Shown: positions 1 to 15,748 of the stretch, in pieces
How positions within the stretch are numbered: the stretch's first letter is position 1
Layout of the letters: every line of letters begins with the position of its first letter
DNA from: Patescibacteria group bacterium
Lineage (GTDB): Bacteria; Patescibacteriota; Minisyncoccia; Phycocordibacterales; UBA9973
Assembly: GCA_038061925.1 (NCBI GenBank)
Contig: JBBTYD010000005.1
Location: 13,477-77,476 of the forward strand
Length of the DNA: 64,000 nucleotides
Direction of reading: 5' to 3'
The notes under the pieces: model-generated
The model's input: the letters and a program-made list of their open reading frames with translations, nothing else
Database searches by the model: none
Told to the model about the DNA's origin: nothing
Made by a program: the position numbers and the translations under genes

Positions 1-320
1 AGGGATTATATTTAGGACAAGATTTTGGTAAGTTAGGTAAAGTGGTTAAAACTACGCCAGGAGAGCTAAAAAGCTTTACAAACATTGTTACAAAAGACCC
101 TTATCATGGCTTAAACCAAGCAATTTCCAGAGGGATTTCTCCCCAACTCATACAAGATACAGTAAAAAATCCTCTGATTAAATTACAACAAGACAGCAAC
201 TCCGTTTATCTTAATAAACAAGCTGGAGTTGTTCTTGATAAATTGGGCGGTTTAATTACTACGTATCATAGTAGTGAATTTAAGGTCCATATATCAAATG
301 TATTAAAAAGTATTAAATAA
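1..320 (+). CDS. 3'-terminal fragment of a protein that starts upstream of the window. Possibly the C-terminal toxin tip of a polymorphic toxin or TcC-like protein.
   Basis: The reading frame is open from nt 3 with no stop, so the ORF enters from upstream and ends at TAA 318-320. No recognisable catalytic motif. Its position directly before a small ORF and an Rhs-type shell gene suggests a toxin C-terminal domain. Confidence 0.35.
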   Translation, partial: GLYLGQDFGKLGKVVKTTPGELKSFTNIVTKDPYHGLNQAISRGISPQLIQDTVKNPLIKLQQDSNSVYLNKQAGVVLDKLGGLITTYHSSEFKVHISNVLKSIK

Positions 321-326
321 AAATTT

Positions 327-602
327 ATGAAAAAAAATGTAATAAATAATTCAATTAAAAAAATTGATAATTATATCCATGAAAGTGACCCATTAGGATT
401 AGGTGGAGCTTCCGGTGAATATTCGGATGTTGTATTTAACCTCTATAGAGTAGCAAAAGAAGGAATGGGTAAAATTACTAACAACCAAATTAAAAACGCT
501 TTTAAAAATATATTTGGCAATCTATCAGACACTTTAAATGTAGAAGACTTGAATCTTATCAAAAGTTTTATTGAAGAAACGATAATTTTAGAAAATGACT
601 GA
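327..602 (+). CDS. Small hypothetical protein (91 aa). Candidate immunity or accessory protein of the toxin locus.
   Basis: Starts 7 nt after the upstream stop and overlaps the start of the large RHS gene by 8 nt, implying translational coupling. No signal peptide. The immunity role is inferred from position only. Confidence 0.3.
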   Translation: MKKNVINNSIKKIDNYIHESDPLGLGGASGEYSDVVFNLYRVAKEGMGKITNNQIKNAFKNIFGNLSDTLNVEDLNLIKSFIEETIILEND

Positions 603-3600
603 AGAAAATAAATTTATGATAGAAAAAAAACAAAAAATAATTTCTTTAGTCACTCTACTGTTCTTGGTCTTTCAACCGCTCTCTTTTATTTTAGCTAATA
701 ACAAGACAACGCTACCTCCCACGCTTGCGCCGATAGACAACAGCTCCCCGGTGGATGACGCTCCATCCGTTCCTCTTTTAAAATCAGACCCCGCCGTGGC
801 CAGTTCTCTGCCACCAACATCGGAGGCGCCTTTAGATCTTTCTCCTGCGCCGGCAACCGACAAACTTACAGACAAGAAATCTTTAAGCAGTGTTCAGACT
901 AGCTCCGTCACTTCAGGAACGACACAGTCATACAGCCCCTCCGGCGCTCAAAAAACTTTGCAACCGAAAACAGATTTAAATACCGGGGCTTTGACCTTTG
1001 ATTATCCAATCTCTGCGCCTCCGGGCAGAAATGGTCTAACGCCAGATTTGAAACTTCAATATAACAGCAAGAACAATTTTAACAATAGTATGTTTGGTTA
1101 CGGCTGGACAGATAATATCCCGTATATTGAAAGAATAAACAAAGATGGAACAGACAAGCTTTATGCAGAAAATTATTTCTATTCTTCCACGGACGGAGAG
1201 TTGGTGTCTCAAGGCAACGGAAAATTCACACCCAAAACAGAGTCGGGAAGCTTTTCCAGTTATAATTTTGGAAGTGATCAGTGGCTCGTAACCGACAAAC
1301 AAGGAACGACCTATAAATTCGGTTACAATTCATCTGCCAGACAAGATGACCCAAATGACACTTCGCATATATATAAATGGATGCTGGAAGAAACAAGAGA
1401 CACAAATGATAACTACATCCAATACACCTATAACAAAGACGCGGGACAGATTTATCCGTCCGCTATAAATTATTCTGGCATCTTTGAAATTGAGTTTTTG
1501 AGAGAGTCCAGGGTGGATATAAATAAATCTTATGCCACGACGTTTCTGGTCGCGAGCAATTATCGGATTAGTGAAATACAAATAAAAATAAATAATGTCT
1601 GGGTGAAAAAATACAGTTTAGCTTATACGACGGGAGATAATGGAGTTCGTTCGTTACTCGAAAGTGTTACTGAATCGGGACAGGATGTGAATTCTGTCAT
1701 TACAACTTTACCCACAATTTTTTTTGATTATTATAAAAGCACTCCTGGTTGGAAACTTGATACTAAGACATACACTGCGCCTGTTTCATTTAACGGGTAT
1801 CAAAGTATGCTTGATGTTAACGGTGATGCTTTACCTGATATTGTCGAGTCATACAAATGGAATTGTAATCCAAACCAAGGAATAGTTAAAAACACATATA
1901 TAAATAATACACATAATGCTTGGAGTGAAAATAGTTCATTACAACCTCCAATTTTGTTTAGTCACTGTGATGCGCGTGGAAAGGAATATGGATATGGGTA
2001 TGGATGGAATCGGGGAGTGCGTACGGGAGATGTGAATGGAGATCTTTTGCCCGATATTATAAAGTCAGATGATCACACTCCCTATATTCTAAACGCAAAT
2101 GAATATGATACGTATATAAATACAAACGGTTCATCTTGGGTTCAAAATAAAGCTTGGCTTCCTACAATCACTTTCAATGGTGATGATGATAATGTTGATT
2201 GGAGTTCTTATTTTATTGATCTTAATGCGGATGGGTTGAATGACATTATACGGAACGGAGGAGGAGGAAACGAAAGAACTGGAACTCAAATAAATATAGG
2301 TACAAGTTTTAGTACGTCTACACAAAATTGGAATACCCCCGTTTCTTTAGCAACCTCACAAGATCTTAGTGTCCAATTTGTTGATATAAATAGTGATGGT
2401 CTCCCCGATATCTTATATCAATTTGATAGTTCTATTCCTAGTCGATCTGAAAAATCAATATATCTGAATAAAGGAGATGGAAAGTGGGTACTGGATAATT
2501 CATTTCTTTCAGATGAAATATACTTTGGTAATATTTATCAAGGCAATAGAATTGTCTTTTTTGATGTAAACAATGATGGACTTGTCGACGCAGTGCCAGG
2601 GAGCACCCTTGTGGATAGAAATTTTAACACATATTTAAATACTGGAACAGGCTGGGTGAAATCTCCGACCTGGAATGTACCAGGGAATCCTTGGAATCCT
2701 TGGATTAATTTTACAACATGGCCTTTTTTAAATATTGTTGATATTAATACTGACGGTTCCTTGGATTTTTTTATGACACAAAATTCAACTACCAATGCTT
2801 GGCTAAACAATACAAAAATTCCCACAGATACTCTCAAAAAAATAACTTCCTCAACAGAAGGTAACACTGATATTACTTATAAAAAATCAACACAATATTA
2901 TGATAATTCAAACAATCTTCTCAATCCAAATCTGCCTTTAAATCTAACAACTGTTTCCCAAATCACCATAAATGACGGCAACGGCAACAGCGAAACAACC
3001 TCTTATAGTTACGAAGGCGGTTCTTACTTTTTCAATACGGCTCTCGACCGCAAGTTCGCCGGTTTCAATAAAGTCAGCGAAACAGATTCGGTCGGCAACA
3101 CCACCACCACCTTTTATCATCAAGGCAACCCTTCGACCAGCTCAGGGCAAACACTTCTTGGAGAATATAACGATGACGAATGGAAAATAGGAAAACCGTA
3201 TCGAGTAGAAACGGCAGACAGTTCTGGTAATATCTATTCCAAAGCCATAAACAAGTGGGATGATTCTGATTTGGGCAATGGTAGTAAATTCGTGAAACTG
3301 GCGCAAACTATTGATTCCACTTACGATGGCGACTCAACGCACAAAGACAAAGCGGAAGGGTATGTATATGACAATTTAAACGGCAATCTTCTCCAAAAAA
3401 CAGAATATGGCGAAGTCGTGGGCAACGATAACGGCAGTTTCAGCGATATTGGCAACGACAGTTTTACCACAAATTACACTTATGCAATAGAAAGCGCGAA
3501 ATCTAAAGTAGCCAGTCAAAATACTGTAGACCAAAATTCAAACAAAGTTAAAGAGTCTCTCTATTATTATGACAACTTGCCATTAGGCCAGCTCTCGAAA

Positions 3601-5622
3601 GGCAACCAGACAAAAGAAGAAAAATGGAAAAATGGAAATACATATGTCAATATCCAAAAATCTTACAGAGGTTATGGCTTAGTGAAGGAAAGCGTTGACG
3701 CCAATGGCAATCCAACTAACTATGCTTACGACAATTTTAATTTATATCCCGCCACCATCACGAACGCCCTCAATCAAACCGTGAATCTGGCTTACGATTA
3801 TTCCACCGGTCAAGTCAAGCAAAAGATTGATCCGAATCATCGAGTCTTTCAATATGCTTATGACGGTTTAGGAAGACTTCTCTCGGAAAAACAACCAGAT
3901 CTCGTTGATCCTTCGTCTCTAGTCGTTAGAACCTCATACATATATACCGATACTCCCAACAATGTCGCAACGCAAAAGACTGATTATTTAGACGATTCAA
4001 CTAGCATTGACACATACACATACTTTGATGGTCTGGGCAGAAAAATACAAGAAAAAAAAGAAGCGGAAGATGGATATTCCGTCAAAGATTATGTGTATAA
4101 CAATCGTGGATTGCTGGACAAAGAATCATTGCCTTACAATAGTTCTGGCTCGGCCAGAACTGCCCCGACGACGACATCGGAGCTTTATACTAATTACACT
4201 TATGACCCAGCGCAAAGAGTAACTGCTTCTGTAAATAATCTAGGCACTATCACCAATACCTACAATGATTGGAAACTGACGATCACCAATGCCAATGGCA
4301 AAACAAAAGATCTATCCAAAGACGCTTATAATAATTTAATCCAAGTTGATGAACACCCTTCGATCAGCTCAGGACCGGCAACCACTTATTACTCCTACGA
4401 TTATCTCGGAGATTTGACAAAAATCACGGATGCTTTGGGCAACATCCGGAATTTTACTTACGATGGTTTGGGACGCCGATTGACAGCCCAGGATTTACAC
4501 GCGCCGGGCGACCTTACTTTTGGCGCTTATGTTTATACCTACGATAATAATGGAAATTTAATTAAAATTGTGGACCCCAATGGTTCGAGAAGCTCACCAC
4601 CTACGGCAATCAATTATACCTACGACGTCTTGAATCGGCAGTTAACTGAAGATTACACAAGAAACACCGGAGTGGAAGTAACTTACACCTACGACCGTGG
4701 CGCCGAGGGCCTAGGACGTCTCACAGGCATTGCCACCCGAGCGCTTGCTCAAACTAACACCTACAACGCAGTGGGCGAACTGAAAAGCGAATCAAAAATT
4801 ATTAACGGAGCGACTTATCGGACCAGTTATGATTATGACCGACTGGGCAATCAGATTACAATCACCAATCCAGATTCAGCCATCGTAAAATACAACTACA
4901 ATTCAGCCGGATTGCTGGAATCAGTTCAAAAGAAAGAAGCAAATGATACGGAATACACTGCGGTCGTTAGCAACTTCGATTATTCTCCAACTGAACAACC
5001 TGCCACCATTGTCTATCAGAATGGCGCAACCACCACCAACACTTACGATTCCACCAAACTTTACAGGTTGACTGCTAAAATCACGACCCTCCCCGGATCT
5101 CTCCATCTTCAAGATCTTACTTACACCTATGACGCAGTCGGCAACATTCTCCAAATAGTCGATGCCTCGGCAACGGACACTTCCAAAACAGCCCATTATA
5201 TTTATGATGATTTAGATCGCCTAATGGAAGCCGTGATAACCAATGTCGCGCCGGGTCAAAATGCCTATACCCAAACTTACACCTACAACGCAATTGGTAA
5301 TCTTTTGACCAAATCCGACTTTTCTGGAATTTATATTTACGGAGGTACGAATTATGCCAATCCGCACGCGGTCACATCTATTGGATCAACCCCGCTAACT
5401 TACGACCGCAATGGTAATGAACTAACTAAAGGTTCCGACTTAACCAATACCTGGGATTACAATAACAGGCTAAGTCAAGCCACGGCCGGTTCTAAGACCA
5501 ACGTTTACACTTATGATCCAAGCGGACAAAGAATCGTATCCGCCAATACTGCCTACACTATCACCGCCAGTCCAACGTCTCTACCCATTAAAAATCCAAT
5601 GCCTGCGCCACCAATAGAATGA
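595..5622 (+). CDS. TcB/Rhs-family shell protein (1675 aa). It has a signal/TM anchor, a Pro-rich linker, an SpvB-type N-terminal domain, an FG-GAP/VCBS beta-propeller, a mid region and many YD/RHS repeats. It ends without an RHS core or toxin tip.
   Basis: The N-terminal hydrophobic segment LVTLLFLVFQPLSFILA is followed by a P/S/T-rich linker. The SpvB/TcdB N-terminal pattern is LTFDYPISAPPGRNGLTPDLKLQYNS...FGYGWTDNIPYIERINKDG. There are at least 10 DxNxDGxxD FG-GAP-like repeats such as DVNGDALPDI, DINSDGLPDI and DVNNDGLVDA. More than 25 YD repeats follow, including YTYDxxGN, YAYDGLGRL, YTYDGLGRR and YDRNGN. The conserved RHS-core segment and C-terminal toxin are absent before TGA 5620-5622. 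Confidence 0.8.
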   Translation: MTEENKFMIEKKQKIISLVTLLFLVFQPLSFILANNKTTLPPTLAPIDNSSPVDDAPSVPLLKSDPAVASSLPPTSEAPLDLSPAPATDKLTDKKSLSSVQTSSVTSGTTQSYSPSGAQKTLQPKTDLNTGALTFDYPISAPPGRNGLTPDLKLQYNSKNNFNNSMFGYGWTDNIPYIERINKDGTDKLYAENYFYSSTDGELVSQGNGKFTPKTESGSFSSYNFGSDQWLVTDKQGTTYKFGYNSSARQDDPNDTSHIYKWMLEETRDTNDNYIQYTYNKDAGQIYPSAINYSGIFEIEFLRESRVDINKSYATTFLVASNYRISEIQIKINNVWVKKYSLAYTTGDNGVRSLLESVTESGQDVNSVITTLPTIFFDYYKSTPGWKLDTKTYTAPVSFNGYQSMLDVNGDALPDIVESYKWNCNPNQGIVKNTYINNTHNAWSENSSLQPPILFSHCDARGKEYGYGYGWNRGVRTGDVNGDLLPDIIKSDDHTPYILNANEYDTYINTNGSSWVQNKAWLPTITFNGDDDNVDWSSYFIDLNADGLNDIIRNGGGGNERTGTQINIGTSFSTSTQNWNTPVSLATSQDLSVQFVDINSDGLPDILYQFDSSIPSRSEKSIYLNKGDGKWVLDNSFLSDEIYFGNIYQGNRIVFFDVNNDGLVDAVPGSTLVDRNFNTYLNTGTGWVKSPTWNVPGNPWNPWINFTTWPFLNIVDINTDGSLDFFMTQNSTTNAWLNNTKIPTDTLKKITSSTEGNTDITYKKSTQYYDNSNNLLNPNLPLNLTTVSQITINDGNGNSETTSYSYEGGSYFFNTALDRKFAGFNKVSETDSVGNTTTTFYHQGNPSTSSGQTLLGEYNDDEWKIGKPYRVETADSSGNIYSKAINKWDDSDLGNGSKFVKLAQTIDSTYDGDSTHKDKAEGYVYDNLNGNLLQKTEYGEVVGNDNGSFSDIGNDSFTTNYTYAIESAKSKVASQNTVDQNSNKVKESLYYYDNLPLGQLSKGNQTKEEKWKNGNTYVNIQKSYRGYGLVKESVDANGNPTNYAYDNFNLYPATITNALNQTVNLAYDYSTGQVKQKIDPNHRVFQYAYDGLGRLLSEKQPDLVDPSSLVVRTSYIYTDTPNNVATQKTDYLDDSTSIDTYTYFDGLGRKIQEKKEAEDGYSVKDYVYNNRGLLDKESLPYNSSGSARTAPTTTSELYTNYTYDPAQRVTASVNNLGTITNTYNDWKLTITNANGKTKDLSKDAYNNLIQVDEHPSISSGPATTYYSYDYLGDLTKITDALGNIRNFTYDGLGRRLTAQDLHAPGDLTFGAYVYTYDNNGNLIKIVDPNGSRSSPPTAINYTYDVLNRQLTEDYTRNTGVEVTYTYDRGAEGLGRLTGIATRALAQTNTYNAVGELKSESKIINGATYRTSYDYDRLGNQITITNPDSAIVKYNYNSAGLLESVQKKEANDTEYTAVVSNFDYSPTEQPATIVYQNGATTTNTYDSTKLYRLTAKITTLPGSLHLQDLTYTYDAVGNILQIVDASATDTSKTAHYIYDDLDRLMEAVITNVAPGQNAYTQTYTYNAIGNLLTKSDFSGIYIYGGTNYANPHAVTSIGSTPLTYDRNGNELTKGSDLTNTWDYNNRLSQATAGSKTNVYTYDPSGQRIVSANTAYTITASPTSLPIKNPMPAPPIE

Positions 5623-5760
5623 TTAGAAAGAATATTTATTCAACCAAATAACCAGCATAAGCATTATCATAGGCCTTGACAATGATGCTGTAGGCAAAGG
5701 CGGAACTTATTAATGTTAAGATAAGAAAATACACTAATGTTTTATTAATTCTGTACATTG

Positions 5761-5833
5761 TGCGCCCGGTTGGGATCGAACCAACGACCTTATCCTTAAA
5801 AGGGATCTGCTCTACCAACTGAGCTACGGGCGC
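5761..5833 (-). tRNA. tRNA-Lys (anticodon UUU)
   Basis: The reverse complement folds as a cloverleaf: acceptor GCGCCCG/CGGGCGC, D-arm GCUC-AGUUGGUA-GAGC, anticodon loop CUUUUAA, T-arm GUUGG-UUCGAUC-CCAAC, discriminator A. CCA is not encoded. Confidence 0.85.
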
Positions 5834-5894
5834 ATAATCTCATTCAAACATAAAATATATACGAAATAAGCCTAAAAATCAAGATAAAATACAA

Positions 5895-7079: not shown

Positions 7080-9515
7080 CTATTTCACTTCTCCGAAATT
7101 GTCTCCGGAGCCGGAGTGAACTTCTAGAGGAATTTCGGTTTTGTGGTGTAAATATGACCTAGAAAGCACATTCTGCATAGCGTTTTTTATTATTTTATCA
7201 GCTTCCAATAGGATAGTTTCTTCCACTTCATATACCAGCTCATCGTGGATTTGTAGCACCAGATGAACCTTGTCTAAGAGGCCTGCTTTTTTTAAATCTT
7301 CTTCGGCATACCTAATGGCCAGCTTGATAATGTCCGCCGTGGCTGTGCCTTGAATCGGCGCATTCGTCGCAGTCCGTTGCGCCATATTTCTTAAAAAAGG
7401 AATTTTAGAATCAATGTTTGGAAAATACCGGCGGCGACCAAATAAAGTCTCGGTAAAATAATTTTTTAAGGCAAACTTTTTTACTTCTTCTAAATAATCC
7501 CGCACCCCGGAAAATTGATTAAAATAATTATCATAAAATTTTTGCGCTTCTTCTCGCGTACCTCCTAGATTTTTACGTAAAGCGGAGACTCCCATCCCGT
7601 AAAGAATGCCAAAGTTTATCACTTTGGCTTGTCGACGCATCTCGCTATTCACTTCTAGAATAGGCACGCTAAAAATAAAAGACGCCACTCCAGAGTGAAT
7701 ATCTTTTTTCTCGCGAAAAATTTGGGTCATTTTTTTATCCCCGGAGAGTATGGCCGCCACTCGCAATTCAATCTGGCTGTAATCAAAAGCGCAAAGTTTA
7801 GAACCCTCTAGCGCGATAAACCCACCTCGAATTCTTTTTCCAAGTTCTGTTTTTATCGGCAGATTTTGCAAATTGGGATCTTGAGAAGAAAATCTCCCGG
7901 TGGTCGTGCCATTTTGCAAAAACTTCGCATGCAACCTTCCGTCGTCTCCAACCATTTTCGGAATTACATCAATATAAGTAGAAAGCAATTTCTGCAACTC
8001 TCGATAAGCTAATATTTCTTTGATTATCGGATGGGCTTCTTCAAGCTCCTCCAGGATTGAGACCTTGGTGGAAAAAGAACCGCTCATATTTTTCTTTTTG
8101 CCAGATTTTAGACCGAGCTTTCCAAAAAGCACTTCCCCCATTTGCTTGGGCGAGTTTATATTGAATTCTGCGCCAGCCATTTTATATACTTTTTTCGTAA
8201 GTTTGTCTAATTCTTTATGATATTCGACCGATAAATCTTCAAAATACTTTTTATCTATCAAAATTCCATAATCCTCCATTTTTTTCACTATCGGCATTAT
8301 TGGACGCTCTATTTCTTCATACACCCCAACCTGATTTTTTTCTTTCAATTGTTCAAAAATATATTCATAGGCAGTTTGAAAAGAATTAGTGTTGGCGAAT
8401 AGTAAAATATCATCTAACTGCGGATTGGAGATATTAGAATTTATAAGCCAAAGAGCGACACTTGCTTCTTGAAGCTTTAGGGAGTCTATGGTTGACAAAG
8501 AATCCCCCTGCAAAGAATTTTCAGAAACGTGGGTCCCCTGTCCTATGTCTCCGAGGGCGAAGTTTCTAAAATTCTTTGCGGGGGAGTTCTTCATATTAAA
8601 AAAGCCTTGCAAGCGCCCAAACAAGCTCCGAAATTCAAACAAGACAAAAACTTTTTCTATCTTTTTTAAATCCGCATTTTTCCAAAAGGTTTTTTCGGGC
8701 AAAATAAATTCAATCGGCGCATCCGTTCTAATCTTGGCTAAAGTTTTCGAGAATAAAGCTTCTTCCTCATTGTCTTTAATTAATTTTATCATTCTCTCGC
8801 TTAGACCCGCTTTCAAAAAAATTTCTTCACTTTTTTTTATTTTTTCGTAAATTTCTTCCAGAGAGCCAAAGGTGGTGATTAAAATAGTTGCAGTTTTCTC
8901 TCCAATACCTTTAATGCCGATAATATTATCCGACGGATCGCCACGTAATCCCTTATAGTCTGGCAAAAGTTCCGGTTTAAATCCAAAACGATTTAGAACC
9001 GCGTCTTCATCATACAAAATAGTTTCATTAATTCCTTTCTTGAGGGTATAAACTTGCACTTTTTTATCATCCACTAATTGCATCGTGTCCATATCGCCGG
9101 ATGCAATAATTATATTTATTCCACCCGCGGGCGGATTTTTCTTCATTTGTTTGACGATCGTTCCCAACACATCATCCGCCTCAAAACCCGGGCTATCGTA
9201 CATCGAAATGCCAAAAGCTTCAAATATAGAACGTGAGTTTTTTAGCTGGGTTATAAGCGCATCGTCAGCTTTTGTTCTACCCGCTTTATATGCGTCATAG
9301 GCAATATGCCGGAATGTTTTTCCCGGTAAATCATAACAGGCCGCAATATAATCCGGCTTTAGATCAGCAACTATTTTCATCAACATGGAGGAGAGTCCAT
9401 ATAACGCTCCAGTCGGCTCGCCCTTGGACGATAAAAACTCTGGCAACGCATGATAAGCGCGATGGATTATGGCGTGAGCATCTAACAATACCAAGGTCTT
9501 AGTGTTTGGGGACAT
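7080..9515 (-). CDS. polA: DNA polymerase I
   Basis: An N-terminal 5'-3' exonuclease domain (LVLLDAHAIIHRAYHA) is followed by Pol A motifs: motif A DYSQIELR, motif B RRQAKVINFGILYGM and motif C LQIHDELV. The likely start is ATG at 9515 (MSPNTKTLVLL). The ORF-track start at 9638 adds 41 hydrophobic residues and is probably spurious. Confidence 0.9.
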   Translation of the reverse strand: MSPNTKTLVLLDAHAIIHRAYHALPEFLSSKGEPTGALYGLSSMLMKIVADLKPDYIAACYDLPGKTFRHIAYDAYKAGRTKADDALITQLKNSRSIFEAFGISMYDSPGFEADDVLGTIVKQMKKNPPAGGINIIIASGDMDTMQLVDDKKVQVYTLKKGINETILYDEDAVLNRFGFKPELLPDYKGLRGDPSDNIIGIKGIGEKTATILITTFGSLEEIYEKIKKSEEIFLKAGLSERMIKLIKDNEEEALFSKTLAKIRTDAPIEFILPEKTFWKNADLKKIEKVFVLFEFRSLFGRLQGFFNMKNSPAKNFRNFALGDIGQGTHVSENSLQGDSLSTIDSLKLQEASVALWLINSNISNPQLDDILLFANTNSFQTAYEYIFEQLKEKNQVGVYEEIERPIMPIVKKMEDYGILIDKKYFEDLSVEYHKELDKLTKKVYKMAGAEFNINSPKQMGEVLFGKLGLKSGKKKNMSGSFSTKVSILEELEEAHPIIKEILAYRELQKLLSTYIDVIPKMVGDDGRLHAKFLQNGTTTGRFSSQDPNLQNLPIKTELGKRIRGGFIALEGSKLCAFDYSQIELRVAAILSGDKKMTQIFREKKDIHSGVASFIFSVPILEVNSEMRRQAKVINFGILYGMGVSALRKNLGGTREEAQKFYDNYFNQFSGVRDYLEEVKKFALKNYFTETLFGRRRYFPNIDSKIPFLRNMAQRTATNAPIQGTATADIIKLAIRYAEEDLKKAGLLDKVHLVLQIHDELVYEVEETILLEADKIIKNAMQNVLSRSYLHHKTEIPLEVHSGSGDNFGEVK

Positions 9516-9569
9516 TATGAAAATTATACCATTTAATATATACTTTATACATAATATCGTAATATATAA

Positions 9570-11267
9570 ATGGCGACTTTTGACGAAGAAAAACAAAATA
9601 AACAACTGGATGACTTGCATAAACAGGAAGAAGAACAACTGGTGGCAAGTTTGGCGGAATCAAAGTATGGTCTTCCTTATATTAACCTGTATCGTCTAGA
9701 CATAGACAACGAAGCGCTCAGGGCGATATCGCATAAAGAGGCGATGGAAATGAAAGTCGCGCCTTTTAAACTTTTTGGGAAAAATATTTTCATCGCGGTG
9801 CGTTTGCCAACGGACGATCTTTTTAAAACGCTAAAAGACGCAATGGGAAGAAAAAACTTAATTCCGGTCTTTTATATGGCTTCGATCGCAAGCCTAAATA
9901 AAGTCTGGGACAGATACAAGGAAATTTCAATGGCGGAAAGCTCAAAAATCGGGGGATTGGATATTTCTCCTGAGGTTTTGAGAGAAACGGCAAAAAATAT
10001 TGAGCATATGCAAGATATTGAGGGACTGGTGATAGAAGCGCTAGAAGGAAACAAAATTCATAAAATTTCTCGTCTGCTTGAAATAATACTGGCTGGAGCA
10101 ATTGCGATCAAGGCTTCGGATATACACATTGAACCAGAAAAGGACCGAGGACGATTGCGACTGCGTCTCGATGGAGTGCTCCAAGATATAAATTTTTTTG
10201 GACTGGATGTGTATCGGCTGCTTAATCCACGCATTAAACTCCTCTCTGGTATGAAGTTAAATTCAAAAATCGCGCAAGACGGACGTTTTAGCATTATGGA
10301 AGAGAAAGAAGAAATAAACATTCGCACCTCGCTGATCCCGGGCGCCTATGGTGAATCAATAGTCATGCGTATTTTGGACCCAAAATCAATCCAAGTAAAA
10401 CTGGAAGAGTTGGGAATAGAACCTTATCTCTTTTCTATAATCGAAAAAGAAATCGCAAAACCAAACGGACTTATTTTAGTCACCGGTCCGACTGGTTCCG
10501 GAAAAACAACCACTCTTTACGCATTTTTACAAAAAATTTATTCTCCAGAAATAAAAATAATAACTATTGAGGACCCGATAGAATATCATTTGACGGGCGT
10601 AACTCAAACCCAAACAAATGATGAAAAAGGTTACACCTTTGCGGAAGGATTGCGTTCAGCCTTGCGCCAAGACCCAGATGTGATAATGGTTGGTGAAATA
10701 CGAGATAAAGAAACAGCGGAAATTGCCGTGCAATCAGCTCTTACTGGGCATATAGTCTTCTCCACCCTTCATACCAACAATGCCGCCGGAGTTATCCCCC
10801 GCCTAATTGATCTTGAGGTAAATCCAAAGATTTTGGTTTCGGCCTTGTCTCTTTCTATTGCTCAACGTTTAGTTCGCAAACTCTGCAAGTCTTGCAAGAA
10901 AGAAAATGATCCAACTGAAAAAGAATCTCAAACTATAAAATTAGTCTTGGACAGCCTAAAGGAAGAAGGCAAAGATTTTTCAAGATATAATTTAAAAGCT
11001 GATCAATCTTTTAAAATTTTCTCTCCGGTCGGCTGCGAAAAATGCAATAAAATTGGCTATACTGGACGAATAGGCATTTTTGAAGCAATTAAAACCGATG
11101 AAGCCATAGAGAAAATAATGCCAGAAAATCCAAGCGAACATGAAATCAAAAAAGTGGCGCACAGTCAGGGAATACTTTCTATGCGCCAAGACGGTATTGT
11201 AAAAATTTTAAACGGCATTACCTCACTCGCCGAAGTGCAAAACGTGGTGGACTTAAGTGAGGAATAG
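9570..11267 (+). CDS. pilB: Type II secretion / type IV pilus assembly ATPase (GspE/PilB family)
   Basis: A GspE N-terminal domain is followed by Walker A GPTGSGKTT, the Asp/His boxes and a C-terminal CxxC...CxxC zinc knuckle (CKSCKK...CEKCN). Confidence 0.85.
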   Translation: MATFDEEKQNKQLDDLHKQEEEQLVASLAESKYGLPYINLYRLDIDNEALRAISHKEAMEMKVAPFKLFGKNIFIAVRLPTDDLFKTLKDAMGRKNLIPVFYMASIASLNKVWDRYKEISMAESSKIGGLDISPEVLRETAKNIEHMQDIEGLVIEALEGNKIHKISRLLEIILAGAIAIKASDIHIEPEKDRGRLRLRLDGVLQDINFFGLDVYRLLNPRIKLLSGMKLNSKIAQDGRFSIMEEKEEINIRTSLIPGAYGESIVMRILDPKSIQVKLEELGIEPYLFSIIEKEIAKPNGLILVTGPTGSGKTTTLYAFLQKIYSPEIKIITIEDPIEYHLTGVTQTQTNDEKGYTFAEGLRSALRQDPDVIMVGEIRDKETAEIAVQSALTGHIVFSTLHTNNAAGVIPRLIDLEVNPKILVSALSLSIAQRLVRKLCKSCKKENDPTEKESQTIKLVLDSLKEEGKDFSRYNLKADQSFKIFSPVGCEKCNKIGYTGRIGIFEAIKTDEAIEKIMPENPSEHEIKKVAHSQGILSMRQDGIVKILNGITSLAEVQNVVDLSEE

Positions 11268-15010: not shown

Positions 15011-15748
15011 TTAATTAAAGATATCTTCAAAAGAATAAAACCCTTTTTTATTTTTAATAAAATTGGCCGCTAGAAGAGCCCCTTTAGCAAACCCGACCCT
15101 ATTATACGCTTGATGAGACAAAGTTATACCATCGGCATTGCTGTCAAACACAACTTCGTGCAAACCGGGGTTTCTCCCGGCTCGAAGCGAAGCAAAATGC
15201 AGTTCGCTAGGTTTAATTTGACCATCTGATTTTTCAGTTAAAATTGATTTTTTGGAAGGAAAATTTTTAATAATTTCACTCGCAATTTTCAAAGCGGTGC
15301 CGGAAGGACTGTCTAATTTTCTCTTATGATGGACTTCCAATCCATATACGTCGTAATCAGAAAATTTGGAAAAAAGCTTAGAAGAAAAAGCTGTTATTTT
15401 AAAAAATATGTTCGCTCCAATTGAAAAATTGGGACTATAGATTAGACCGATTTTATATTTAGCAACTAACGCTTTCACTTTATCGAATTCATCATACCAT
15501 CCAGTCGTGCCAATAATTAAATTTTTACGAAGTTTCGCAACCTCTTTTATATTTTCTAACACAGCGTCTTTGGACGTAAAATCTATCGCCACATCCGCTT
15601 TTCTAATACCTTTTAAATCCAGTTTATCATCTTTATTTTTAAAACTGATTGAAACCACTTCAAAAACTTCCGACCCGCGACAGAGCGCGTTAATTTCTTG
15701 ACCCATCTTGCCAAAACCAAGCAAGGCGATTTTTATTTTATTTTTCAT
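15011..15748 (-). CDS. dapB: 4-hydroxy-tetrahydrodipicolinate reductase
   Basis: Rossmann motif IALLGFGKMGQ and DapB signature EVHHKRKLDSPSGTA. Confidence 0.85.
   Translation of the reverse strand: MKNKIKIALLGFGKMGQEINALCRGSEVFEVVSISFKNKDDKLDLKGIRKADVAIDFTSKDAVLENIKEVAKLRKNLIIGTTGWYDEFDKVKALVAKYKIGLIYSPNFSIGANIFFKITAFSSKLFSKFSDYDVYGLEVHHKRKLDSPSGTALKIASEIIKNFPSKKSILTEKSDGQIKPSELHFASLRAGRNPGLHEVVFDSNADGITLSHQAYNRVGFAKGALLAANFIKNKKGFYSFEDIFN

Follow-up and report, generated by a model that had tools for sequence, protein, structure and literature searches.

A core-less Rhs shell gene beside tRNA-Lys in a patescibacterial genome and a candidate plug-toxin partner encoded upstream

The window analysed here, a stretch of 64,000 nt from a Patescibacteria group bacterium of the UBA9973 lineage (assembly GCA_038061925.1, contig JBBTYD010000005.1, forward strand 13,477-77,476), contains a gene for a 1675-amino-acid, core-less Rhs/TcB-like shell protein, here called big, which ends abruptly near the 3' end of a tRNA-Lys gene. 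With a probability of roughly 0.5, big encodes the shell subunit of a split, two-gene Rhs polymorphic toxin, and its stop codon at 5620-5622 is a natural, conserved gene end; the other subunit would be encoded by a 384-amino-acid plug-toxin gene, here called small. As judged by alignment to homologues, big and small correspond to exactly complementary parts of one canonical protein of about 2000 amino acids. An earlier note on this DNA had suspected a C-terminus that was lost or never present, and this truncation reading is refuted: nothing appears to be missing from the genome, as the C-terminal part is recognizable in a separate gene, here two genes upstream of big.

The window begins just 594 bp before big, and the upstream genes were read on a longer contig carrying the same locus (L001, position 9407 of which is window position 1). 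Single-chain full-length homologues are called fused, and the labels Lnnn and Pnnnn denote the loci or contigs and the homologous proteins compared, respectively. The locus comprises the following features.

L001 8572-9726 (window 1-320 = 3' part), plus strand: small, 384 amino acids, starting 835 bp before the window
327-602, plus strand: open reading frame (ORF) of 91 amino acids in the position of an immunity gene, no family match
595-5622, plus strand: big, 1675-amino-acid core-less Rhs/TcB-like shell
5506-5535, plus strand: last YD repeat, YTYDPSGQRI, where the homology to contiguous Rhs proteins passes from big to small
5536-5622, plus strand: 28-residue tail rich in serine, threonine and proline (S/T/P), VSANTAYTITASPTSLPIKNPMPAPPIE, and TGA; P0122 and P0005 have homologous, longer tails

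The shell gene and its separately encoded end

The product of big is composed of a signal peptide, an S/T/P linker, an SpvB domain (E 2e-18 in Pfam/NCBIfam), an FG-GAP propeller (FG-GAP_3, E 5e-10) and RHS/YD repeats (PF05593, E 5e-25; TIGR01643, E 1e-15), which continue to the end of the protein. The Rhs-associated core TIGR03696 was not found in big in the Pfam/NCBIfam searches, even at E <= 10. The description of the gene end in the earlier note holds: exactly 28 residues separate the last YD repeat from the TGA, no frame downstream of big on either strand continues with repeat-like sequence, and the distance from the stop codon to the 3' end of the tRNA is 137 bp. The abrupt end is real and no reading error.

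The 384-residue protein starts with its own ATG and a signal-peptide-like leader, ..LLAFLFILTPFTPVFA|SK.., with an AxA-like site. Residues ~46-120 represent the last shell strands, about 70 residues of YD shell (..TTYPSKYYNIDSNGKVTKHIFANG..), and residues 122-211 match the Rhs-associated core TIGR03696 (E 2.4e-17), which within the pair is present in small only. The core ends ..RYYDGKKGQFISQDPVFW...NSYSYAGNNPITNSDPSGK, which I take to be the usual ending of an Rhs core, and is best explained as a plug plus aspartyl autoprotease ending ...NNPITNSDPSGK. Next come a hydrophobic pre-toxin segment and a 105-amino-acid C-terminal toxin domain (window 3-317, stop codon at 318-320). The pre-toxin module, some 65 residues between core and toxin (residues 212-277, L001 9205-9400), is common to relatives with unrelated toxins (..YAPQITSF.QSL.TPLGQ.G.SQA..DA.KGNYGMA..G..TAGE..) and may be a membrane-entry segment.

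The earlier note suggested locating the end of homology by aligning the C-terminus of big with full-length Rhs proteins, and in such alignments homology leaves big at residues 1647-1663. This is where the match to big stops in 42 shorter homologues that contain both regions, and in most of the same 42 the match to small opens at residues ~46-60. About 118 of the 120 homologues of full big extend 320-390 or more residues beyond its C-terminus, big being shorter than these full-length proteins by 320-390 residues; the extension aligns to small from about residue 54 in most of them, with 0-10 residues between the two matches, while a minority carries extra sequence between the big-like and the small-like part. 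The typical length of fused homologues, which are mostly from Patescibacteria and have a leader of the same kind, is 1900-2100 amino acids, close to the sum of 1675 and the ~330 mature residues of small.

Small, the 91-amino-acid ORF and big look like one operon in the order small - immunity - big, because the ORF starts 6 nt past the stop codon of small and overlaps the ATG of big by 8 nt, and a promoter-like site lies directly upstream of small. No significant match to the 91-amino-acid ORF was found in Pfam, NCBIfam or a PDB sequence search. A comparable small ORF stands after every small gene examined, one of them being Imm40 beside a colicin-E5 toxin.

Repeats can mislead assemblers, and a single normal rhs gene, misassembled in circularly permuted form, could give a comparable arrangement; Rhs genes often break assemblies, and the big genes of two other loci (L012 and L017) stop at contig ends. 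I consider this explanation negligible. Big and its flanks are identical at six places in separate assemblies or runs (ENA, Logan and NCBI), at least five of them from Hainich H43 groundwater, and the window is 100% identical to the GenBank contig of the metagenome-assembled genome (MAG) across 15.6 kb; because all of these agree, the structure of the locus is no assembly accident. In addition, the sequence is unique at either outer junction, a leader and a start are present on each half, and an independent genome (L007, described below) has the same split with another gene order.

Conservation of the split

The nearest relative of big is P0122 (1710 amino acids, 55% identity), which is encoded on contig L007 of a different assembly and has the same architecture, likewise without the core. 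It ends ..YDPNGQRIVSAHTSYTVT..SKSPIMTPMSEPKIPAPEP.., aligning to ..YDPSGQRIVSANTAYTIT..SLPIKNPMPAPP.. of the window, and carries a homologous, proline-rich tail (RIVSANTAYTIT..PIKNPMPAPP against RIVSAHTSYTVT..PIMTPMSEPKIPAPEP), compared with which the tail in the window is shorter. An orthologue with the same gene end and a conserved tail, which the earlier note had held to be incompatible with its own reading, is therefore at hand in P0122. A 387-amino-acid gene lies 27 nt past P0122, and its leader runs straight into TTTTIYPSKYYNIDSSGKVTKHIFANG, the start point after the leader being that of the small protein of the window. The L007 locus lies in a different genomic context, without a tRNA, and its gene order is reversed (big then small).

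Synonymous sites between the genes of big and P0122 are saturated (proportion of synonymous differences, pS, 0.76-0.78), while the proportion of nonsynonymous differences (pN) ranges from 0.16 (last RHS part) to 0.46 (propeller), with 0.21 for the SpvB part and the N-terminal RHS part. Because two 5-kb frames are open despite saturated pS, with the C-terminal repeats most conserved, this comparison indicates purifying selection on the core-less shell.

P0005, with ..QRIVSTN.. followed by an S/T/P-rich tail, could serve as a third example; it lends weak support, as its contig is short, the reading frame is still open at the contig end and the N-terminus has a chimeric appearance. In contrast to big, P0209 (2513 amino acids, L013 4456-15049) stops shortly after ..TKHIF, has no such tail and is directly followed by a Tn3-family transposase and a resolvase; here an Rhs gene has truly been cut short by a transposon. 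P0380, P0393 and P0461 were considered as further examples and rejected, as they end early without the tail and look like fragments. A candidate duplication scar, between the tail of big and the N-terminus of small, was likewise discarded, since there was no DNA match and the protein score was at the level of shuffled sequences (1208/2000 as good).

In the main rival explanation, small acts alone as a secreted mini-Rhs toxin and has an immunity gene to itself, whereas big is independent of it or decaying, a deletion derivative that lost core, toxin and immunity gene and is now inert or has some other role (surface or adhesin protein). The two would then be neighbours only since rhs loci accumulate cassettes. 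I regard such decay as possible, yet less probable than a natural end of the shell subunit. It draws on the rarity of core-less shells, on the existence of real truncations in the family such as P0209, and on the L007 locus, which resembles a main gene with a downstream small gene after deletion of core, toxin and immunity gene. It does not readily account for frames of 1675 and 1710 amino acids that stay open despite saturated synonymous sites, with pN lowest in the last RHS part, for the split point and homologous tail that big and P0122 share, or for the translational coupling of big to small and the presumed immunity gene. The gene order, moreover, recurs in three loci; the window order is seen in two loci of MAG GCA_964554645.1, once as small-imm-small-imm-big (L012/L014) and once as small-imm-big (L017).

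Small genes with exchanged toxins and the question of assembly

The leader is joined straight to ..YPSKYYN.. in at least 14 small proteins (350-450 amino acids), and a second class of small proteins retains one more YD repeat. Their C-termini differ, with colicin E5 (next to an Imm40 neighbour), alpha/beta-hydrolase and CHAP domains among those of the other small proteins. The MAG of the window itself has a second small gene (P0243/P0479, assigned by the accession series MEK7539138/140/610), which is located after infC-rpmI-rplT and followed by a 95-amino-acid gene, a shell gene being absent nearby. P0479 is 93% identical to the small protein of the window from the first strand to DPVFW and 31% identical beyond, and the two toxins are unrelated. 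A third small gene, P0244, shows the same unusual leader start, MKSLQIYRSTI, and 74% identity in strands-plus-core; it derives from the same samples at similar coverage and stands alone with a 104-amino-acid gene. By these comparisons the small genes are polymorphic, with conserved strands-plus-core and unrelated toxins. Strands-plus-core that are 93% identical while toxins swap form the pattern expected if this part must fit a partner, which speaks against a decayed locus. In favour of decay, leader-bearing small genes also occur far from any shell gene (L008, L011 and L117) and in the orphan position (L032 and L034).

Two neighbourhoods of these genes may be recorded in passing. Two plug-toxin loci of the population each have a gene for an IS200-like Y1 transposase at a distance of about 5 kb (L001 3097-3774; L117 10168-10836), and a gene for an FtsH-like AAA protease with intein and LAGLIDADG matches (L011 9915-11323, GCA_040960315.1) is found near two plug-toxin genes.

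The leaders are of two types, A (..LLAFLFILTP..VFA) and B (..FLVFQPLSF.LA), which have been exchanged between big and small genes across loci, with scores well above those of shuffled sequences (0/2000). In the window and in L012, type B is on big and type A on the gene just upstream; in L007 this is reversed. The leader sites compared are:

window 595-720: leader of big
L001 8572-8710: leader of small
L007 7797-7970 and 12957-13050: leaders of the L007 locus

The swapped leader types imply recombination at the leaders, that is, at the 5' ends. As type A is the usual leader of fused homologues, the small genes look like a full-length gene minus the stretch from the leader to the last strands.

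Such exchange also bears on a different explanation, in which the small genes are stored cassettes that become active only once recombination with the shell gene restores a fused gene in some cells. A conserved core with variable toxins is indeed the substrate of orphan-cassette exchange (PMC11067744), and the exchange of types A and B between big and small, type A being normal in fused homologues, fits this view. I nevertheless find it rather unlikely, as the small genes have their own start, a signal peptide and a fixed junction between leader and strands (at least 14 proteins). Silent orphans are not known to have a start codon of their own, a signal peptide or a fixed leader junction. Big and small, furthermore, share no DNA similarity at the junction, and a simple deletion cannot fuse them because small lies upstream on the same strand.

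The last 105 residues of small belong to a toxin family that is found as the C-terminal part of fused Rhs proteins as well. Among the residues invariant in this family are His35, Asn56-Pro57, Gln63, Thr86 and Tyr88, and Arg43 is nearly invariant. An AlphaFold2 model from 15 sequences reached a predicted local distance difference test (pLDDT) score of 93.9, and a Foldseek search with it ranked colicin D first, not significantly. Searches of Pfam, NCBIfam and PDB sequences gave nothing significant for the domain, which leaves the fold comparison as the sole lead; DUF4258 is matched weakly by 4/15 toxin relatives (best E 0.005, below Pfam thresholds) and not by the copy in the window. With moderate confidence, the domain is best read as a predicted RNase-type toxin of the RelE/colicin-like BECR fold, its sequence similarity to the RelE/ParE, colicin E5/D, CdiA-CT and DUF4258 toxins of this kind lying below Pfam thresholds.

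Taken as a whole, the locus is best read as encoding a binary Rhs cocoon that is exported by Sec and takes exchangeable toxin cartridges. Both the split and the insertion of the locus are read from the sequence comparisons; assembly in trans is what I infer from them. Both proteins would be exported by Sec, and the shell would be closed in trans in the way TcB is by TcC, the strands of small completing it and the core of small plugging it. Autoproteolysis would free the toxin inside the shell, and alternative cartridges might be loaded into one shell, as happens with YenC1-3 and YenB. That the core-less shell is closed outside the cytoplasm by several plug-toxin proteins from dispersed loci, so that the toxin is chosen by protein assembly and not by DNA recombination, is a tentative proposal, and I hold it to be less probable than the natural gene end itself.

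The arrangement resembles the TcB-TcC pair of toxin complexes (Tc; YenB/YenC1-3 and TcdB2-TccC3), in which SpvB, propeller and RHS shell are likewise in one protein and a second one supplies the remaining shell together with the core autoprotease and a variable toxin. Alternative toxin subunits at distant Tc loci share one shell partner, and the small genes are dispersed too; in Yersinia entomophaga, YenB packages YenC1, YenC2 and YenC3, the last of which is encoded about 900 kb away (PMC11067744). Unlike in Tc, the split falls just before the last strands and the plug and not in the middle of the shell, such that the C-like subunit has ~385 amino acids instead of ~950 and contributes ~70 shell residues instead of about half of the shell. 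Both subunits carry putative Sec-type signal peptides here, the order is C-like, immunity, B-like, and the host is a Patescibacteria-type groundwater bacterium. The immunity-like gene after the toxin, which Tc does not have, suggests bacterial targets. No TcA gene was found in the 6.6-kb insert or among the called genes 10 kb either side, to which the search was confined; these called genes are housekeeping genes or have no family match.

The single-chain Rhs proteins of Patescibacteria (SpvB-FG-GAP-RHS-core-toxin, ~2000 amino acids; P0123-P0240) are 42-55% identical over the whole of big and share its leader type, the core motif and variable C-terminal toxins. They differ in that the chain here is divided after the last full YD repeat, with a leader on each part and a proline-rich tail on the shell. 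Orphan Rhs/CdiA cassettes have in common with small a conserved core fragment, a variable toxin, an immunity gene and several copies per genome, whereas the small genes have their own start, signal peptide and fixed junction and, here, a place upstream of the shell. My literature search on Rhs in Patescibacteria or the candidate phyla radiation (CPR) and on split Rhs gave nothing directly relevant. Relative to known Rhs/Tc polymorphic toxins, the new element would be a naturally split Rhs with a plug-toxin subunit that is predicted to be exported separately.

Several points weigh against a split, exported cocoon. The complete core-less shells known are two, plus one fragment (P0005), and at L012 and L017 the contigs stop inside the big gene. 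No further cluster with a big-type end emerged when 1.84 billion representatives were searched, and a degenerate DNA pattern of the tail motif had no match in the metagenome collection. The signal peptides were judged by eye, and the 91-amino-acid ORF is presumed to be the immunity protein from its position alone. Leader-bearing small genes are found beside complete fused Rhs genes (L032 and L034, where they lie downstream of these, the classical orphan position) and alone (L008, L011 and L117), and because of this they may work without any shell. TcB and TcC, finally, assemble in the cytoplasm and need co-expression, and assembly in trans has no known precedent outside this compartment.

The toxin of Rhs, Tc and teneurin cocoons is believed to become enclosed because shell and cargo fold together. 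If true, a separately exported plug plus toxin would allow a test of whether a near-complete shell can load and close in trans, and it could serve as a minimal model when exchangeable cargo is to be engineered. Little is known of how Patescibacteria attack hosts or competitors, and the system would be a candidate weapon of theirs, acting by contact or secretion. For annotation, neither core-less SpvB/RHS genes nor the many proteins of ~400 amino acids labelled 'RHS repeat-associated core domain' in these genomes should automatically be classed as fragments or pseudogenes.

The insertion beside tRNA-Lys

Downstream of big, the window continues with three features.

5623-5635, no strand: 13-nt spacer that holds the right edge of the insertion; homology to relatives resumes at the mini-ORF
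5636-5758, minus strand: 40-codon mini-ORF (MYRINKTLVYFLILTLISSAFAYSIIVKAYDNAYAGYLVE), transmembrane- or signal-like with one hydrophobic helix, convergent with big; ancestral flank
5760-5833, minus strand: tRNA-Lys(UUU) as placed by ARAGORN; ancestral flank, 3' end towards the locus

The strand and orientation of the tRNA agree with the earlier note, which had its 3' end face the toxin gene. For comparison, 80 syntenic loci were gathered from the metagenome collection by way of PolA relatives. They share the conserved order PilB-PolA-PEMT-p218-tRNA-Lys-SpoU-Fpg-RuvA, and Rhs-like sequence is present at this site in 0/80 of them. The distance from tRNA-Lys to SpoU is 23-214 bp in the closest relatives, and the closest loci with the same tRNA orientation (L044, L045, L046 and L054) have tRNA-Lys, a 42-codon ORF, about 35 bp and SpoU in succession. 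The mini-ORF is matched by tblastn in 17/80 related loci, its C-terminus included, with 76% nucleotide identity to L044; the recorded gene calls of the related contigs list no gene in this region. In most relatives tRNA-Lys lies between p218 and SpoU in either orientation, and some have uvrB-uvrA-uvrC before SpoU.

The insert spans about L001 8460-15041 (~6.6 kb), and because the mini-ORF is intact between it and the tRNA, it is limited to small, the 91-amino-acid gene and big plus ~110 bp of upstream sequence. As seen against these relatives, the three-gene operon is a lineage-specific insertion between SpoU and the mini-ORF beside tRNA-Lys.

The earlier note had gone further and proposed a genomic island integrated at tRNA-Lys, whose distal Rhs gene lost its C-terminus at the boundary. 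The insertion beside the tRNA stands in the comparison with the 80 relatives, and the position on the 3' side of tRNA-Lys and a tail shorter than that of P0122 would also suit an island; what falls away is the integrase, the tRNA repeat and the contact with the tRNA. A direct repeat of the tRNA-Lys 3' end, expected upstream by the earlier note, was absent from the window and from 10 kb upstream (L001) at up to 3 mismatches. The integrase it also expected was found neither in the insert nor within 10 kb upstream, where the genes are of the housekeeping kind (SpoU, Fpg, RuvA, S20 and CspA) and the mobile gene is an IS200-like Y1 transposase 5 kb away. The mini-ORF separates insert and tRNA, the insert consists of the three toxin genes only, the C-terminal part has a gene of its own, and the orthologue on L007 stops at the same point in another context without a tRNA. 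An island targeted to tRNA-Lys is accordingly very improbable and already largely refuted; the locus is no tRNA-att island, and the gene end is no island-boundary truncation.

No boundary repeats above chance were found, the repeat search having returned families of YD repeats and chance-level inverted repeats. One imperfect inverted repeat of 19 nt (79%) coincides with the edges of the insert, at the start of SpoU (L001 8441-8459) and the end of the mini-ORF (15042-15060); it is no longer or better than dozens of chance pairs in the region. At 3-6 kb the GC content is 0.42, compared with ~0.37 nearby; other parts of the window reach equal values, and the RHS repeats bias the composition. Blocks of 6-8 kb between tRNA-Lys and SpoU in some relatives, considered as signs of an island hot spot, turned out to be uvrB-uvrA-uvrC.

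Two further observations concern the rest of the window. The PolA ORF (7080-9638, minus strand) has 852 amino acids from its first TTG and 811 in the public call, and the true start is probably downstream, because the longer form overlaps the start of the divergent PilB gene (9570). At the far end, five tRNA genes (His, Gly, Pro, Arg and Gly) are clustered at 61531-62888.

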